From Candidatus Rokuibacteriota bacterium (lineage in GTDB: Bacteria > Methylomirabilota > Methylomirabilia > Rokubacteriales > CSP1-6): DNA of 64,000 bases. The stretch covers positions 44,148 to 108,147 of the forward strand of contig QHSP01000019.1 in NCBI GenBank assembly GCA_003220495.1. Reading direction: 5' to 3'. Shown here one piece after another: positions 6,158 to 45,254 of this stretch. The stretch's first letter is position 1; each line of letters opens with the position of its first letter. A model generated the notes under the pieces. The model was not told the DNA's origin and did no database searches. It worked only from the letters and a program-made list of their open reading frames with translations. Made by a program: the position numbers and the translations under genes.

Positions 6158-7789
6158 TCAGCGGCGGAAGCGCTTGAGGAGGTCCTGAAGTCCGCCCTCG
6201 ACCTTCTCCCGGTCGACCTGCCCGGCGAGCGAGGACGGATCGATACGAACGGACGGTGACGCGGCGTTGCCGGTGACCTTGGCCCGCACCTCACCTCGTC
6301 CGTGATCGACGCGCAGATCGAGGTTCATGCGTCCGGTCGCCAGACCGTAGTCCCCGACGACACCCACCTTCAACGCCTTGGCCGTGTACAGGAGATCCTT
6401 CGTGCTGAGGACGCCGTTGGTGATCTGGTAAGTCCCGGTGATCGACTCGAAGTCGACCGGCGACGACGTGAGCGCTTTCGGCACATCGGCGGCGAGCACC
6501 GACGACGCCGCGCCGGCCACGCTCGTGACCACGCCGATGAGCGCGATCGCCTGCGGGCCGACCACCTTGCCCGGACCGATCCGCAGCTGGCCGGAGCCGC
6601 CGAGGGTGTTCAGGAGATCCGACGTGTTCGTCGAGAGGGCGCCGCTGAGGTCGAGCGGGCCCGACACGGCGTACCCCTCGCAGAGGAAGTCCACGAGCAC
6701 CTTCTCGGCCGGCATCGACTTGATGGCCAGGTCGCTCAGCTGCACGTGGGCGCCATGATCGAGTGTCAGGGTCAGGTTGGTGCTGATCGGACCGCCACTG
6801 ACGGAGGTCGTCACGGGTCGGCTCTGGAACCGCGCGCCGTCCCACGAGGCACCGCTCACCTTCAGGAGACCCAGGGCGAGCGTCCGCTGCTTCGGCTCCG
6901 GACAGGCCTGATTCGATCGAGTCACCCTGACGCTCGCGAGCTCGACGTTGCCGGAGATCCGGGGTACGCCCAGCGTGCCGCCGAGCGAGAAGTCGCCCTT
7001 GATCGGACCCGCGATCGTGGGAGTCGGCCCGGCCGCAGCGGCCACCAGCTTCTCGACGTCCTTGCCCTCGATGCCGACCCTGGCGCGGACGGGCGCCTCG
7101 AGCAGGGTCTTGGCGCCGTTCACCGCGATGATCCCGTCGGCCAGCTTGACGGTGAGATCACCCGGCCTCACCGCGAAGGCGCCTTTGAAGGCGAGCTGCG
7201 AGCCTTGACCGGTCACGGTGACGTCCAGGTCCTCGACGCGATACGGAGTCTGCGAGGGCCCCTTCCCACGCGTCACGTACGTGATCAGCCCCTTGTCGAT
7301 CTTCACCCGCGAGACGATCGCCGCGGCCGCGCCTCCCGTGGCGCCGCCACTCGATCGGCCTTGGCGCGACGCGGTCTTGGACTCTGCGGGCGGGGTGAGG
7401 CTGGCCACGTTCAGCCGCCCCTCGGCGTTCTGGATGAGCGCGATGCGTGGCCGCGCGAGGGTGATGTCGCCGAACTCGACGCGACCGGACAAGAGGGGGC
7501 GCAGCTTGAGATAGATCCGGCCCGTCTCGAGCGTCAGAAACGGCGTGGTGCCGAACTGCGGGTCCTCGGCGACCTCGAGCTTGTGGAGCTCGATCGACGG
7601 TAGCGGGAACAGGCCGACCGACAGCGACTCGAACTTCACGGGCCGCCCGACGGCCTGCGCCGCGCTGCTGGCGATCATCGCCTGGACACGCGGCGTGTCG
7701 ATCAAGCGCGGCAGCGCGACCGCAGCCACGATCGCCAGCAACACGACGACGCCGACGAGGATGCCGGCCCACTTCACGGCGCGCTTCAA
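6158..7789 (-). CDS. AsmA family outer-membrane-assembly protein
   Basis: N-terminal TM/signal anchor (WAGILVGVVVLLAIVAAVALP) followed by a long beta-rich Gly/Thr/Val-rich body typical of AsmA-like proteins; 543 aa. Confidence 0.65.
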   Translation of the reverse strand: MKRAVKWAGILVGVVVLLAIVAAVALPRLIDTPRVQAMIASSAAQAVGRPVKFESLSVGLFPLPSIELHKLEVAEDPQFGTTPFLTLETGRIYLKLRPLLSGRVEFGDITLARPRIALIQNAEGRLNVASLTPPAESKTASRQGRSSGGATGGAAAAIVSRVKIDKGLITYVTRGKGPSQTPYRVEDLDVTVTGQGSQLAFKGAFAVRPGDLTVKLADGIIAVNGAKTLLEAPVRARVGIEGKDVEKLVAAAAGPTPTIAGPIKGDFSLGGTLGVPRISGNVELASVRVTRSNQACPEPKQRTLALGLLKVSGASWDGARFQSRPVTTSVSGGPISTNLTLTLDHGAHVQLSDLAIKSMPAEKVLVDFLCEGYAVSGPLDLSGALSTNTSDLLNTLGGSGQLRIGPGKVVGPQAIALIGVVTSVAGAASSVLAADVPKALTSSPVDFESITGTYQITNGVLSTKDLLYTAKALKVGVVGDYGLATGRMNLDLRVDHGRGEVRAKVTGNAASPSVRIDPSSLAGQVDREKVEGGLQDLLKRFRR

Positions 7790-9814: not shown

Positions 9815-10666
9815 TTATAGCACCGGGTTCGGCGGCCGTCGGTCGAGGAGCCCGCGCAGCCAGTGGTACATCGCATAGGCCTCGAGGGCGAACGGAGGGA
9901 AACCGAGATAACCGAGCACGGGCATTTCGAAAACCTTGATCCCGCCGAGATACGGGACCGCGTAGGTCCAGCGGGTCGCCGCCCAGTAGTTCCAGAGCTC
10001 CCACAGCACGCCACAGACCACACCGCTGGCCAGGAGTCCGAACAACCGCGACGCGTCTCCAGACGCCAGGTCGGCCAGCCACGACGGCCGGCCTCGCCGA
10101 TAGTTCAGGGGCTCGAGCATCAGGACCCAGCCGATCCAGACCAGCGGGACGAGCCAGGTCGAGACGACGACGAGCGGCACGACGACGCCGATCGCGCCGA
10201 TGGCGACGAGGAAGCGGAGGGCGGCCGGCGGCGGTCGCCAGGCCCGCACGCGAGCCCGACGGAAGATCGTCGCTCGCAGGGTGGCGGCCGTGAGGAACAT
10301 CGCCGGGAAGATCGTCGCGAAGGCCCAGTCGTAGCCGACTCGTCGCAGGAAGAGGTTCGGCTCGAGCCCGTGATAGCGCCACCAGAGGCCCTCGGCGTGG
10401 ACACCGCCTCGCCAGAAGCGCGGCGAGTTGTAGAGCTCGAAGAGCCACCAGCAGGCGATGGACGTGAGCGCCACCAGGAGGCCTTCGACGCGGTCCGTCG
10501 TGAGATACGAGCGGCCTGTGAAGCGCGCCGTCACGGCGTCGATGAAGAGGACGTAGCCGGTCCACACGATCGGCGTGAACCAGCGGGCCACCGTCGGCTC
10601 ACCCGAGAAGAGCAGCACCTCGGCGGCGCCGATGACGCCGAGCCCAGCCCATCCGTGGGCGCTCAA
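9815..10666 (-). CDS. Trp-rich integral membrane protein, function unknown
   Basis: Multiple hydrophobic helices and very high Trp content. Probable TTG start at 10664-10666 overlapping the upstream stop (TTGA); the longer ORF-track N-terminus would overlap the upstream gene by 120 nt. Confidence 0.45.
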   Translation of the reverse strand: MSAHGWAGLGVIGAAEVLLFSGEPTVARWFTPIVWTGYVLFIDAVTARFTGRSYLTTDRVEGLLVALTSIACWWLFELYNSPRFWRGGVHAEGLWWRYHGLEPNLFLRRVGYDWAFATIFPAMFLTAATLRATIFRRARVRAWRPPPAALRFLVAIGAIGVVVPLVVVSTWLVPLVWIGWVLMLEPLNYRRGRPSWLADLASGDASRLFGLLASGVVCGVLWELWNYWAATRWTYAVPYLGGIKVFEMPVLGYLGFPPFALEAYAMYHWLRGLLDRRPPNPVL

Positions 10667-41293: not shown

Positions 41294-42438
41294 GCCCGCG
41301 CTCCGGCCTCGCGCATCCGGAGGAGCGGCACACAGGCCAGGCCGATCGACGCCAGCAGCACGTAGACGACGGCCGGCGACGTCCACGCGAGCAACGTGGT
41401 CGCGGCCACCGGACCGATGAAGCCGGCGCCGATGCGCGCCGCGTTGATCACTCCGATCGCCGAGCCGCCCGCGTGCTGGACGACTCGCGAGACGACCAGA
41501 GGAAACACGGGGGCGATCGAGAGCACTTGCAGGAAACGCAGGCCCCCGTAAGGCCACACCGAGCCCGCCGTGGCCAGCGCGGCGACCGCGACCGACGACA
41601 CCACGAGCAGCGCCGCGATCAGCCTTCGCTCGGGGAACAGCTCGCCCAGTCGGGGCACCGCGAGGGCGCCGAGCGCCGCCGCGACGCCCGAGATGAAGAT
41701 CAGCACGCCGCCGACCTCGAGCGTTCGCTTTGCCTCGACGCCCAGCCCGGGCAGCACGTGGGGCAGGATCGAGGTGAAGTAGAACACCTGGATCGAGCCG
41801 CCCAGAACGACCAGGGTGACGGCGGCGACCTCGCCGGGACGGACCGGCCGACCCGCGGCGCGGATCTGCTCCGCGCGCGGTGGTTGGGGAACCGCCCAGT
41901 GAACGAGCGCGGCGCAGGCCAGCAGGATCATCCCGCCCAGCACGAACGAGCCGCGAATGCCCAGCCGCGCCGCCGCGATCGCGCCGAAGAGCGGCCCCAC
42001 GACCTGACCGACCGTCATGGCCGATTGCAGCGTCGCGATTCGCCGACGCACCTCGGCGCCCTCGACACTCCGTCCGACCATGATGAAGGCGAGCGTCGAG
42101 GCCGCGCCCATCGCGCCGAGGACGAGCCGGGCAAAGAAGAGCTCGGGCAAGGTGCGGGCGAGCGCCATCACGAAGAAGCCGAGCCCCTGCAGCGCCTCGA
42201 CCGCCACGTAGCACGCTTTCGGGTTGCCACGGGCGGCGTAGCGGCCCCAGACGGGCGCCGTCATCACCGTGACGAGCGACGTGATCCCGACGATCCAGCC
42301 CGTCCACCGCAAGGTGGCCGCGGGCTCCAGGGTGCTGACGCGCTGGATGTGGAAGGGCAGGCTCACGAACACGAACGACCACGCGAACGAGCCGAAGAAC
42401 ATCGTGACGGGGAGGAGCTGAGGCCCGGTCCGCCTCAA
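41290..42438 (-). CDS. MFS transporter
   Basis: About 12 hydrophobic helices in MFS-like arrangement; about 380 aa. Start codon uncertain. Confidence 0.7.
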   Translation of the reverse strand: MRRTGPQLLPVTMFFGSFAWSFVFVSLPFHIQRVSTLEPAATLRWTGWIVGITSLVTVMTAPVWGRYAARGNPKACYVAVEALQGLGFFVMALARTLPELFFARLVLGAMGAASTLAFIMVGRSVEGAEVRRRIATLQSAMTVGQVVGPLFGAIAAARLGIRGSFVLGGMILLACAALVHWAVPQPPRAEQIRAAGRPVRPGEVAAVTLVVLGGSIQVFYFTSILPHVLPGLGVEAKRTLEVGGVLIFISGVAAALGALAVPRLGELFPERRLIAALLVVSSVAVAALATAGSVWPYGGLRFLQVLSIAPVFPLVVSRVVQHAGGSAIGVINAARIGAGFIGPVAATTLLAWTSPAVVYVLLASIGLACVPLLRMREAGARA

Positions 42439-42474
42439 CGCGAGATCACGCGATGCCGTGCTATTGGTGCGCCC

Positions 42475-42530
42475 TGATGAGGCAGAACCCCTGCGCCTCG
42501 ATGCCGAGGGCGACGTTGAACGTCGAGCGG
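42475..42530. repeat. 56-bp direct repeat, copy A (duplicated 3' end of the CMD/AhpD-family gene)
   Basis: tgatgaggcagaacccctgcgcCtcgatgccgagggCgacgttgaacGtcgagcgg matches 42911-42966 at 53/56 positions. Confidence 0.85.
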
Positions 42531-42573
42531 TTGTCTGACGGGCGCATTCTCACGGGATCATAGCATCGCGTGG

Positions 42574-42888
42574 CTACCTGCCGCCTGCGATCTCGTCGAT
42601 GCGGTGATCTGCGACAGCGACCACGGCGATTGCGGGGCCGACGACCTGACCTCGGCACAGGACGCGCAGCTCCGAGCGCAGGGTGTCGGCCGTGTCTACC
42701 AGGACGAAGGCCGCCCCAAGTGCGCCGCCGGGGCTGTCCAGATGGAGCTCGATGGGCCGGTTTCCGCAGGCGTCCAGCGTCAGAAGCGCCGCCGCCGCTC
42801 TCGCCGCCGCGTCATCGTCGAGCCGGCCCGTGACGAGCACGATGCGGCGCTCGAAGAGTTGCTCTTGCAGCCAGCTCCCGAGGCTCAT
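42574..42888 (-). pseudogene. ClpP-like fragment (N-terminal about two thirds of the ClpP fold, catalytic Ser replaced, His/Asp region missing)
   Basis: RIVLVTGRLDDDAAARAAAALLTL...PIELHLDSPGGALGAAFVLVDT...CRGQVVGPA aligns to ClpP ERVIFLTGQVED...YINSPGG...CMGQAASMG, with Ser to Gly at the nucleophile. It ends at 104 aa. Confidence 0.55.
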
Positions 42889-42905
42889 GCCTGACAGCGT
42901 ACAAC

Positions 42906-43448
42906 CTACTTGATGAGGCAGAACCCCTGCGCTTCGATGCCGAGGGTGACGTTGAACTTCGAGCGGAAGTTCTCGAGCGCCACGGCGGCGGTCAGCTCGA
43001 CGATCTGGGCCTCGGAGAAATGCGCGCGCACGCGGGCGAACAGATCGTCGCTGACCTTCCGGTCGGTGAACGTCATCGCCTCCGCGTACTCGAGCGCCGC
43101 CCTCTCGCGCTCGTCAAAGAGATCACTGGTCGATGCCGTGGCGACCTCGGCGATCTTCGCCTCCGTCGCGCCGGCTCGCATCCCCCTGGATGCGTTGATG
43201 TCGATTCAGAATGGACACCCGTTGATCAGGGCGACGCGCAGATAGACCAGCGACAGGAGCTGGGGAGGGAGAAGGCCAGACCGCTCGACCGCCGCCGAAA
43301 GCTGCTTGGCGGCCTTCATGATCCCGGGCGTGTGCGCCTGGATCTTGGTCGTGTTCAGGACGAAGCCGAACGTGTCCGTCTCCTTCGCGAACGTTTCCTT
43401 CAGGAGCGGGTCGTCGCCGGGATCGGCGACCTCTTTCACGCGCGGCAT
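42906..43448 (-). CDS. carboxymuconolactone decarboxylase (AhpD-like) family protein with in-frame UGA; candidate selenoprotein
   Basis: N-terminal ORF (43206-43448) ends ...LVYLRVALINGCPF-TGA and the frame continues IDINASRGMRAG...NVTLGIEAQGFCLIK (42906-43181). Intact family members read NGCxYCIDxH, so the TGA sits at the second Cys of CxxC. Confidence 0.6.
42911..42966. repeat. 56-bp direct repeat, copy B (inside the 3' end of the CMD/AhpD-family gene)
   Basis: See copy A; the two copies are 436 bp apart and flank the ClpP-like fragment. Confidence 0.85.
43177..43205 (-). promoter_or_regulatory. candidate bacterial SECIS hairpin immediately 3' of the in-frame UGA
   Basis: UGA, then 11 nt (AUCGACAUCAA), then a 7-bp perfect stem CGCAUCC / GGAUGCG with G-rich apical loop AGGG. 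Confidence 0.5.
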
Positions 43449-43473
43449 GGCCCGATTATACCTGCGCGGCGCC

Positions 43474-44388
43474 CTACGGGCGCCCTCCCCGTGAGCGATT
43501 CAAGCCCTCCTCGATCCCCGGCAGGGCGTCGAGGAGCACCTTGCCGACGACCTCGAGGCTCTGCGCCGAGACCTTGTCGAGCGTGTCCTGCGCCGTGTGC
43601 CAGGGCGGAAAGTCGAAGTCGATCAGCAGCGCGGCGGGAATCCCCAGGCGTATGAACGGCGCGTGGTCGTCCTCGACCGCGAGCGAGTCCGGCAGGAAGT
43701 GCGCGGCATACCCCAGCCGGACGGCGCTCGCCCAGATGACGTCGTTCATCCACGGCGTCGACGCGGCCTCCCGCCGGATGCCGAGATTGCGGTCGCCGAT
43801 CATGTCGGCGACGATCACGGCGCTCGGCAGCTGCCGCGACTTGTCGAGCTCGCCGGCCATCCGCCGCGAGCCGTAGAGACTGTCCGTCGCGGTCCACGTT
43901 TCCCTGGCCTCCTCGCCGTCGAACCACACGACCCAGTAGGTGTATTCGCGCGGCCGCGCTTGAAGGCGGCGCGCCAGCTCGATCAGGAACGCCGCGCTCG
44001 AGCCGCCGTCGTTCGCGCCCACGAACGCGAGGTCGCGGAACCACTTGGTGTCGTAGTGCCCGCCGATCAGGATCACGTCCTTGCGGCGCCCCGGCACGGC
44101 CCCGACGATATTGGCCATCGGGAGCCGGCCGTGCGGCGTCGCCGCGTCGAACGAATCGACTCGGACCGAGACGCCGGTCTTCCGCAGCTCCTCGACGATG
44201 TACGTGCGAGCCCGCGCCGCGCCGGGTGACCCCGCCGGCCGCGGGCCGATGGCGACGAGCCGCTCGACGTGGCGTAGCGCGGCGGCGCCGTCGAACACCG
44301 GCGGCAGACGCGTCTCCTGCGCGCCCAGCGGCAGCAGCCAGGCCAGCACGATCGCGGCGAGCGGTAGGCCGACACGCAGCCGGCTCAT
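43474..44388 (-). CDS. M28 family zinc peptidase (aminopeptidase-like), secreted
   Basis: Signal peptide MSRLRVGLPLAAIVLAWLL; M28 metal-binding context GGHYDT...DGGSSAAFL...WFDGEE. ATG at 44386-44388 overlaps the upstream stop. Confidence 0.8.
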   Translation of the reverse strand: MSRLRVGLPLAAIVLAWLLPLGAQETRLPPVFDGAAALRHVERLVAIGPRPAGSPGAARARTYIVEELRKTGVSVRVDSFDAATPHGRLPMANIVGAVPGRRKDVILIGGHYDTKWFRDLAFVGANDGGSSAAFLIELARRLQARPREYTYWVVWFDGEEARETWTATDSLYGSRRMAGELDKSRQLPSAVIVADMIGDRNLGIRREAASTPWMNDVIWASAVRLGYAAHFLPDSLAVEDDHAPFIRLGIPAALLIDFDFPPWHTAQDTLDKVSAQSLEVVGKVLLDALPGIEEGLNRSRGGRP

Positions 44389-45254
44389 CGCGGCTTCACC
44401 CCGACGGCGCCGTAGTAGTTCACGGTCAGCACGAACGCGTCGGCGGCGACGACGGCGGTGAAACCGTCGAGCCATCGCTCGGCGGTAGGCACGTCCACGA
44501 TCCCGAAATGAACGGCCCGCTCCGCCCGGCGCTCGAGAAAGGTCTTCGTCCACGGCTCGAGGGTCGTGTCCTGGTAGACGTCGGTCAGCAGGCGCACGTC
44601 GGTGAGCCCGGCGGCGCGCAGCAGGCCGGGGAGGCGGCGGCCGCTGTGGGGCTCCTCGTAGAACCGCTCGGCGACGCCGCGCATGATCCGTTCGGTCACC
44701 GACCGATCGGGATGCGTGATCGCGACCACGCCGAAGTCCTGATCCTGCAGGCCGACGCGGCCGCCCGGTCGCGTCACCCGCGCCATCTCGCGCACGACGC
44801 GCAGCGGGTCGGCGACGTGGAGGAGAACCGTGACGGCCAGCGCGGCGTCGAAGCGGTTCGCGGCGAAGGGCAGGCTCGCGCCGTCGGCGACCCGCAGCGC
44901 GATGCGGGTGCGACGCGCGGTCTCCCGACAGAGGGCGCGCGCCCGATCGAGCATACGCCGGCTGGCGTCGATGCCGACGACCGCACCCCCGCGCCCGACG
45001 CGTGCGGCGAGGTCACGGACGACCACGCCGGTGCCGCAGCCCACCTCGAGCACACATTCACCCGACCGGATCGGAACGAACTTCAGGAAGCGTCGGCGCA
45101 ACCGCGCGTGCGTTCGGCCCCGCTCCTCGAGACTCTTGGCCATCTCGTCGACGTTGGTCTGGGCGTCGGCATCGCGCCAGGGGTCGGGATGCTGGTCCGG
45201 CGGGCGCGCGCGGCGGCCGGCGACCGCCGGTCTCCGAGTTTCGCGCGGGCTCAC
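44385..45254 (-). CDS. class I SAM-dependent methyltransferase
   Basis: Motif I VLEVGCGTGVVVRDLA. GTG at 45254; an alternative ATG at about 45143 gives about 252 aa. Confidence 0.7.
   Translation of the reverse strand: MSPRETRRPAVAGRRARPPDQHPDPWRDADAQTNVDEMAKSLEERGRTHARLRRRFLKFVPIRSGECVLEVGCGTGVVVRDLAARVGRGGAVVGIDASRRMLDRARALCRETARRTRIALRVADGASLPFAANRFDAALAVTVLLHVADPLRVVREMARVTRPGGRVGLQDQDFGVVAITHPDRSVTERIMRGVAERFYEEPHSGRRLPGLLRAAGLTDVRLLTDVYQDTTLEPWTKTFLERRAERAVHFGIVDVPTAERWLDGFTAVVAADAFVLTVNYYGAVGVKPR

Follow-up and report, generated by a model that had tools for sequence, protein, structure and literature searches.

The gene described here lies on the minus strand of a 64,000-nucleotide (nt) stretch of DNA from a Candidatus Rokuibacteriota bacterium (assembly GCA_003220495.1, contig QHSP01000019.1, positions 44,148 to 108,147 of the forward strand). 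We refer to this stretch as the window, and all coordinates are window positions unless a locus is named. The gene encodes a protein with the AhpD/carboxymuconolactone decarboxylase (CMD) fold and carries an in-frame TGA at the position of a catalytic cysteine. Comparison with its relatives indicates that this TGA is very probably a selenocysteine (Sec) codon, decoded via a downstream hairpin of the Sec insertion sequence (SECIS) type. A first-pass annotation of the window had favored programmed Sec insertion over a pseudogene or sequencing error, and we support that choice with high confidence: the TGA is present in all 160 related loci that we collected, the protein is conserved on both sides of it, and the hairpin recurs across species.

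Read directly on the minus strand, the open reading frame (ORF) starts with an ATG at 43448 and reaches the TGA (43208-43206) after 80 codons, ending in ...LRVALINGCPF. The frame then stays open for 99 further codons up to a TAG at 42908-42906, with the tail IDINASRGMRAG...GIEAQGFCLIK. The 80-codon ORF ending in ALINGCPF-TGA and its continuation beyond the stop had both been noticed in the first pass, and all of the coordinates given there are correct. On translation, the TGA at 43206-43208 is the sole in-frame interruption, with no other stops or frameshifts. The features on which the argument rests are as follows.

42906..43448, minus strand: predicted complete selenoprotein gene of the AhpD/CMD fold (180 sense codons, with Sec as codon 81, and a TAG stop)
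43206..43208, minus strand: UGA predicted to be read as Sec, U81, the second redox position of C78-P-F-U81 (from the cysteine alignment and TGA conservation)
43206..43217, minus strand: CxxU redox motif, TGT CCA TTC TGA = C78 P79 F80 U81 (from the family alignment of 85 members)
43195..43205, minus strand: 11-nt spacer from the UGA to the hairpin base (direct reading; the offset is 11 or 12 in most species)
43177..43194, minus strand: SECIS-type hairpin, with arms CGCAUCC (43194-43188) and GGAUGCG (43183-43177) and loop AGGG (43187-43184)

Conservation of the UGA at the catalytic cysteine position

To place the TGA within the family, we aligned the read-through product with cysteine-containing homologues. 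The TGA column corresponds to the second cysteine of the CxxC motif in the homologues P0008, P0110, and P0120. In the alignment with PA0269 of Pseudomonas aeruginosa, INGCAYCVNMH pairs with INGCPF[TGA]IDIN, which places the TGA on Cys51, the second cysteine of the catalytic CxxC. The first-pass expectation that the TGA would fall on this cysteine column is therefore borne out in all four comparisons. The three Cys forms are at most 51% identical to the window protein. The closest species representatives are Rokubacteria metagenome-assembled genomes (MAGs), with 91 to 93% identity. One Cys form, P0008 (locus L089, 10001-10561, NACSFCIDINSA), is 60 to 70% identical to many Sec forms.

We then collected related loci in two scans. 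The species scan, limited to one genome per species, yielded 80 loci from at least three phyla, namely, Rokubacteria/Methylomirabilota, Acidobacteria, and Alpha-, Beta-, and Gammaproteobacteria; two cultured isolates, Vineibacter terrae CC-CFT640 and Reyranella soli NBRC 108950, are among the carriers. The metagenome scan of JGI contigs, for which a Cys-containing relative served as the query, returned another 80 loci. All 80 species genomes and all 80 metagenome contigs have TGA as the Sec codon; TAA, TAG, TGC, TGT, or any other sense codon occupies this position in none of the 160 related loci. Even when seeded with a Cys form, the metagenome scan thus gave 80 Sec forms and no Cys forms.

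The residues past the stop are conserved in the 85 distinct members of the family alignment, which indicates that the part after the TGA is translated and under selection as one protein with the part before it. Exact copies of the 80-amino-acid (aa) product are on record in 76 blocks of the contig collection and also on 54 contigs, and the presence of an identical product on dozens of independently assembled contigs excludes an assembly error. In addition, 21 of the 38 coding-like ORFs of the window end in TGA. As this is the commonest ordinary stop in the window, UGA is not reassigned genome-wide, and the recoding would be specific to this site.

The hairpin downstream of the UGA and alternative explanations

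The hairpin described in the first pass, a perfect 7-bp stem (CGCAUCC/GGAUGCG) closed by an AGGG loop and starting 11 nt past the UGA, was confirmed; these 18 nt alone fold at -10.5 kcal/mol. The claim that its spacing fits bacterial SECIS elements also held, as the 11-nt spacer and the 7-nt arm together put 18 nt between the UGA and the loop. The bacterial SECIS model (the bSECISearch consensus quoted in PMC13188914) has a loop of 3 to 9 nt, a stem of 4 to 16 bp, a UGA-to-loop distance of 16 to 37 nt, a G at loop position 1 or 2 with G or U usually next to it, and a minimum free energy of ≤-7.5 kcal/mol. The window hairpin agrees with this model on all four bSECISearch criteria (a 4-nt loop and 7-bp stem, G as the second loop nucleotide, 18 nt, and -10.5 kcal/mol). 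Like the E. coli fdhF-type SECIS and the bSECISearch consensus, it is a stem-loop inside the coding sequence directly past the UGA, with its base 11 nt and its loop 18 nt away, and in its small loop the second nucleotide is G and the next one G or U. It differs from the fdhF-type element in being shorter and free of bulges (a perfect 7-bp stem with a 4- to 5-nt loop).

By itself, the hairpin does not exceed chance, and its significance comes from the comparison across species. In 67 of 82 genes, a stem of 6 bp or more, closed by a 4- to 5-nt loop, starts 12 nt past the UGA, and in 47 of 82 a 7-bp stem starts 11 nt past it; at all other gene positions, the corresponding background was on average 1.0 gene (maximum, 14). 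Pairing is kept through many stem variants (GCAUCC/GGAUGC, UCCGUC/GACGGA, UCCAGC/GCUGGA, UCCGCC/GGCGGA, UCCCUC/GAGGGA, UCGGUC/GACCGA, and UCCUUC/GAAGGA). The loops of most relatives are CGUG(U), CGGG, or AGGG, and alignment columns 23 and 25 are an invariant G in 80 sequences. In the three Cys-form genes, by comparison, no hairpin of 6 bp or longer is present at the SECIS offset.

For a statistical test of covariation, we used an ungapped codon-based alignment of 45 proteobacterial-type sequences. Of its cells, 95.2% were paired, and two-sided changes occurred in five of the seven pairs. The covariation score was reached by none of 500 shuffles, and registers slid along the alignment paired at 54% or less. 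The pairing is also visible in the protein: residues 87 and 90 of the proteobacterial type covary (Val/Thr, Ser/Leu, Ala/Ala, Ile/Met, Leu/Arg, and Phe/Lys), as the codon of one lies across the SECIS stem from the codon of the other. The RNA structure constrains the protein sequence at these two residues. In the window, codons 87 and 90 are at 43188-43190 and 43179-43181; the register of the Rokubacteria type is offset by one nucleotide, and these two codons are nearly invariant in it.

Several observations weigh against Sec decoding or temper the evidence for it. Folded as a single sequence, the 66-nt region is no more stable than its shuffles (z = 0.20) because the G+C content of the window is 69%. 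The stem is nearly invariant among the 35 Rokubacteria-type sequences, the window included, and covariation there is weak (87.8% paired), with double changes at two pairs (a U-A/C-G exchange in the basal pair, and A-U replacing C-G in the closing pair). The strong covariation is contributed by the proteobacterial relatives, in which the loop has one nucleotide more than in the Rokubacteria type. As the hairpin overlaps conserved codons, coding constraint explains part of its conservation. The Cys-form control comprises only three sequences, and one of them, P0008, keeps a 5-bp remnant at offset 13, which looks like a reversion from Sec to Cys followed by decay of the SECIS. No Rfam family matched anywhere in the window at gathering thresholds, and relaxing the E value up to 10 over 43120-43260 gave only a chance microRNA match on the opposite strand. 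ARAGORN detected no tRNA-Sec in the 64-kb window or in ∼1.2 Mb of related-locus flanks, and tblastn with E. coli SelA, SelB, and SelD (NC_000913.3) found nothing at 1e-3 in the window and 86 loci. A composition-based scan of the window for other genes with an in-frame TGA returned antisense artifacts only.

The same kind of scan in the related-locus flanks gave mostly true stops followed by the in-frame start of the next gene. A second CMD-like CxxU candidate (...LRVSTTLGCNY-TGA-GNQR...) was seen in L057, a Burkholderiales MAG contig (JADZGE010000020.1), on the minus strand near 6646 and ∼3.5 kb from the family member. Our literature search returned nothing specific linking Rokubacteria or Reyranella to selenocysteine. 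For the phylum Methylomirabilota, Sec-type hydrogenases have been reported (PMC13582414), and the review PMC13188914 describes the phylum as a heavy user of predicted selenoproteins, citing Deng et al. 2026 for 63 such predicted genes in one Methylomirabilota MAG.

Three other explanations of the in-frame TGA can be weighed against this evidence. The interruption could be a recent nonsense mutation or a miscall in a former TGC or TGT cysteine codon. This would agree with the GenBank record, in which the product is a hypothetical protein of 80 aa (PYN37209.1), and with a 436-bp insertion that disturbs the 3′ end of the gene. A TGA shared by 160 of 160 loci from different phyla and many independent assemblies, together with strong protein conservation past it and no further stop or frameshift, effectively refutes a pseudogene or sequencing error, the alternative that had already been set aside in the first pass. 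A split gene, in which an 80-aa polypeptide and a second one of ∼91 to 99 aa made by reinitiation assemble into one AhpD-like domain without read-through, is extremely improbable. It would account for what the protein search returned, namely, hundreds of called 99-aa products that start directly after the stop ('MDINASRGM...') alongside N-terminal fragments ending in '...NGCPF', and an ATG does follow the TGA in some species. This pattern of fragments is the signature of gene callers splitting genes at a conserved stop. The codon 3′ of the TGA varies across the family (ATC, ATT, ATA, ATG, or GTC), with no conserved restart codon; most species have ATC, ATT, ATA, or GTC, none of them a start codon, and in the window the TGA is followed by ATC, with the first ATG eight codons on, at M89. 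Moreover, the break falls inside the CxxC motif, exactly on the catalytic cysteine column, neither TAA nor TAG ever takes the place of TGA, and a conserved hairpin with SECIS geometry follows.

It is also very unlikely that the UGA is recoded at this site with a residue other than Sec, either Trp by near-cognate read-through or Cys brought in by SelB on a tRNA(Cys) that resembles tRNA(Sec), a route for which PMC13582414 cites Vargas-Rodriguez et al. 2018. A downstream hairpin can in principle promote read-through, and the window and fetched flanks yielded no Sec machinery. Against this, the site is that of the nucleophilic cysteine in a redox motif, a position at which Trp would be incompatible with function, and the spacing and G-containing loop of the hairpin fit a SelB-type SECIS. 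If Cys were inserted, TGC or TGT would often be expected at this position, yet neither occurs in any of the 160 close relatives.

Fold, redox motif, and proposed chemistry

The assignment to the CMD/AhpD family made in the first pass is upheld by profile searches and by a predicted AhpD-like fold. With Cys at the TGA, the 180-residue product matches Pfam CMD (PF02627) over residues 41 to 124 with 60.7 bits (gathering cutoff, 23). The best NCBIfam match is NF053654, which covers residues 1 to 175 of the protein and positions 1 to 175 of the 179-position model (E = 1e-42), with a score of 145.8 bits against a cutoff of 310; five further family members score 124 to 144 bits and likewise miss this equivalog cutoff. 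The score for TIGR01926 (peroxidase-related enzyme), 49.7 bits, is under its subfamily cutoff of 81.8. By these scores, the window protein belongs to a sister family of NF053654 and is not a member. The model is named 'GroundWater_YciW, YciW-related (seleno)protein', and while the homology is end to end and the name allows a Sec form, the window protein remains below the cutoff.

In a sequence search, the nearest solved structures were PA0269 of P. aeruginosa (2ijc/2o4d/7xw1; E, ∼1e-18), Atu0492 (2gmy), and the debrominase Bmp8. An AlphaFold model was built on P0001, which is 91% identical to the window protein and has Gly at the Sec position. It shows an all-helical AhpD fold (pLDDT, 89.9) and superposes on PA0269, Atu0492, Bmp8, and the AhpD of D. 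radiodurans with TM-scores of 0.7 to 0.9, with 2ijc, 7xw1, 2o4d, and 6k40 among the structures matched. Relative to the PA0269-type structures (2ijc, 2o4d, 7xw1, and 2gmy), the P0001 model has the same fold, with target-normalized TM-scores of 0.87 to 0.93 and a root mean square deviation of 1.3 to 1.5 Å, and the CxxC helix-turn-helix of PA0269 aligns residue for residue, with Sec81 equivalent to Cys51. Besides P0001, the catalogue entries P0002, P0003, P0004, and P0007 are also otherwise full length, and in the five entries the Sec position is occupied by Gly, Ser, Leu, or Trp. These are probably artifacts of alternative-code translation or protein-level assembly rather than real variants.

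In the alignment of 85 members, the residues N76-G-C-P-F-U81, D83, N85, R88, E115, E159-N-F-R-S-K-F-N166, and Q174-G-F-C177 are invariant or nearly so. The first-pass annotation had read the redox site as the family motif NGC-x-Y-C-I/V-D-x-H. The TGA does occupy the column of the second cysteine in this motif, but the subfamily motif is N-G-C-P-F-U-I-D-I-N, with Asn instead of His four residues past Sec. PA0269 His55 and Glu36 have been described as essential residues within the AhpD proton relay (PMC3141380). His55 of PA0269 and His137 of Mycobacterium tuberculosis AhpD, four residues past the second cysteine, correspond to Asn85, which is invariant in the 85 members, and Glu36/Glu118, 12 residues before the first cysteine, correspond to Ser66 in the window protein and to Ala in close relatives. 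The family further differs from PA0269 in having Phe80 in place of Tyr50 and from the PA0269-type proteins in an extra N-terminal region of ∼40 residues and a C-terminal QGFC motif. The latter (Q174 G175 F176 C177) is kept in 85 of 85 members, and the PA0269-type structures stop short of it.

42918..42920, minus strand: Cys177 codon in the C-terminal Q-G-F-C motif, a candidate third redox residue (from QGFC conservation)

We propose that the mRNA encodes a 180-residue, all-helical thiol-type oxidoreductase of the AhpD/CMD fold with the redox pair Cys78-Pro-Phe-Sec81. UGA codon 81 would be decoded as Sec because the 18-nt stem-loop (7 bp, AGGG) starts 11 nt downstream. By the canonical bacterial mechanism, SelB with GTP and Sec-tRNA(Sec) would bind the hairpin and deliver Sec when the UGA is in the A site; binding by SelB and Sec machinery elsewhere in the genome are presumed here. 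This decoding arrangement is the canonical bacterial one and adds conceptually nothing new on Sec decoding. As for the chemistry, the Sec81 selenolate would be the nucleophile that attacks an oxidized substrate or partner, and Cys78 would resolve the intermediate via a selenenylsulfide, the second CxxC position being taken as the reactive residue by analogy with AhpD-type CxxC proteins. More speculatively, the selenenylsulfide may be handed on to the C-terminal Cys177. Sec is largely deprotonated at neutral pH, which offers a rationale for the missing His/Glu relay; the Cys forms of the subfamily also lack the relay His. Since the family lacks both of these AhpD relay residues, its members need not be AhpC reductases or peroxidases. 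That the AhpD fold supports thiol chemistry beyond peroxide reduction is illustrated by the tetrabromopyrrole debrominase Bmp8 (6ohi/6ohj), which matches over its full length (query-normalized TM-score, 0.82 to 0.84; sequence E = 4.5e-9). The identity to Bmp8 is only ∼20%, and neither a bmp-type gene neighborhood nor a sign of a halogenated substrate was seen here.

AhpD-like (COG2128) selenoproteins with a CxxU motif are already known from the Sargasso Sea (Zhang et al. 2005; PMC1088965) and the GOS data (Zhang & Gladyshev 2008; PMC2398784), and a review from 2026 (PMC13188914) lists TIGR01926 as the model for 'AhpD-like protein, CxxU'. The first-pass description of AhpD-like proteins as a minor selenoprotein family is contradicted by the GOS ocean data, in which AhpD-like 1 is the fourth most numerous selenoprotein family (PMC2398784). 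The present gene shares the Pfam CMD superfamily and the CxxU placement of Sec with the published AhpD-like and 'CMD domain-containing / AhpD-like 2' (PF02627) groups, and it was detected by the same logic, in which a Sec/Cys pair is combined with a bacterial SECIS. By description rather than by sequence, the carriers differ from the marine ones, being soil and groundwater Rokubacteria, Acidobacteria, and Reyranella/Vineibacter-type Proteobacteria; JGI names the relatives 'alkylhydroperoxidase family enzyme'. The gene is thus a further member, plausibly a separate subfamily, of the already known AhpD-like selenoproteins.

Gene surroundings, annotation, and significance

In Rokubacteria, the gene comes after genes for an S-adenosylmethionine (SAM)-methyltransferase and an M28 peptidase, an order kept in ∼30 loci and absent from the proteobacterial loci examined. 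Nothing in the neighborhood of the gene points to a substrate. Upstream of the start codon, the window has one further feature of note.

43455..43460, minus strand: TATAAT box 6 nt 5′ of the ATG, without a Shine-Dalgarno sequence, a candidate leaderless-mRNA promoter

An exact TATAAT 6 nt before the start and no Shine-Dalgarno sequence characterize 15 distinct Rokubacteria upstream sequences (the window and 14 orthologues). Other Rokubacteria orthologues (in the range L007-L036) have TAGAAT or AATAAT at the same place, or neither, and proteobacterial and some Rokubacteria members have an AGGAGG-type Shine-Dalgarno sequence instead. The TATAAT pattern suggests that the mRNA may be leaderless in the Rokubacteria clade. 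A strict scan of 42300-44700 for sigma-70 promoters and terminators gave nothing, including no -35/-10 pair.

At its 3′ end, the window gene differs from that of the closest relative, L007, by the 436-bp insertion mentioned above (region 42475-42966). The insertion is bounded by a 56-nt direct duplication of the last codons of the gene (42475-42530 and 42911-42966; 95% identical) and carries an ORF for a 104-aa ClpP-like fragment (42574-42888, minus strand). Because of it, the protein ends in ...GFCLIK rather than ...GFCLVKPHH. The same arrangement was otherwise seen only in L004-L006.

Current annotation truncates these genes at the UGA, and versions of the protein written with X are absent from the collection searched. 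The 80-aa product of the window is identical to GenBank PYN37209.1, 'hypothetical protein DME01_05865 [Candidatus Rokuibacteriota bacterium]'. In RefSeq, WP_147846677.1 of Vineibacter terrae (L043, NZ_VDUZ01000008.1) is an 80-aa 'carboxymuconolactone decarboxylase family protein' cut at the UGA, as is WP_147147760.1 of Reyranella soli (L059, NZ_BKAJ01000030.1); the gene is at 10001-10540 in each of these two loci. The sub-cutoff score against NF053654 probably explains the RefSeq fragments in Reyranella soli and Vineibacter terrae. Of the NCBI models that take selenoproteins into account, NF053654 is the nearest, and the family scores less than half of its cutoff.

Taken together, these results lead us to a tentative joint reading, which we consider somewhat less than evenly likely as a whole: the gene may belong to a separate subfamily of the AhpD fold that is essentially Sec-only, with rare, derived-looking Cys forms, in which Asn and Ser replace the His/Glu relay and a QGFC cysteine has been gained. 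The subfamily would be widespread in aerobic soil bacteria, culturable Reyranella and Vineibacter among them, systematically misannotated as 80-aa and 99-aa fragments, and leaderless in the Rokubacteria clade, and its reaction might be other than AhpC recycling or peroxide reduction.

One consequence is the repair of annotation, since GenBank and RefSeq cut this gene and its relatives short even for cultured isolates, and metagenome catalogues contain hundreds of the 99-aa C-terminal fragments. The family is also a clean case, found in nature, of joint change at two residues, 87 and 90, imposed by an RNA structure. As it is present in cultured aerobes, both Sec insertion and the substrate of the enzyme are directly testable.

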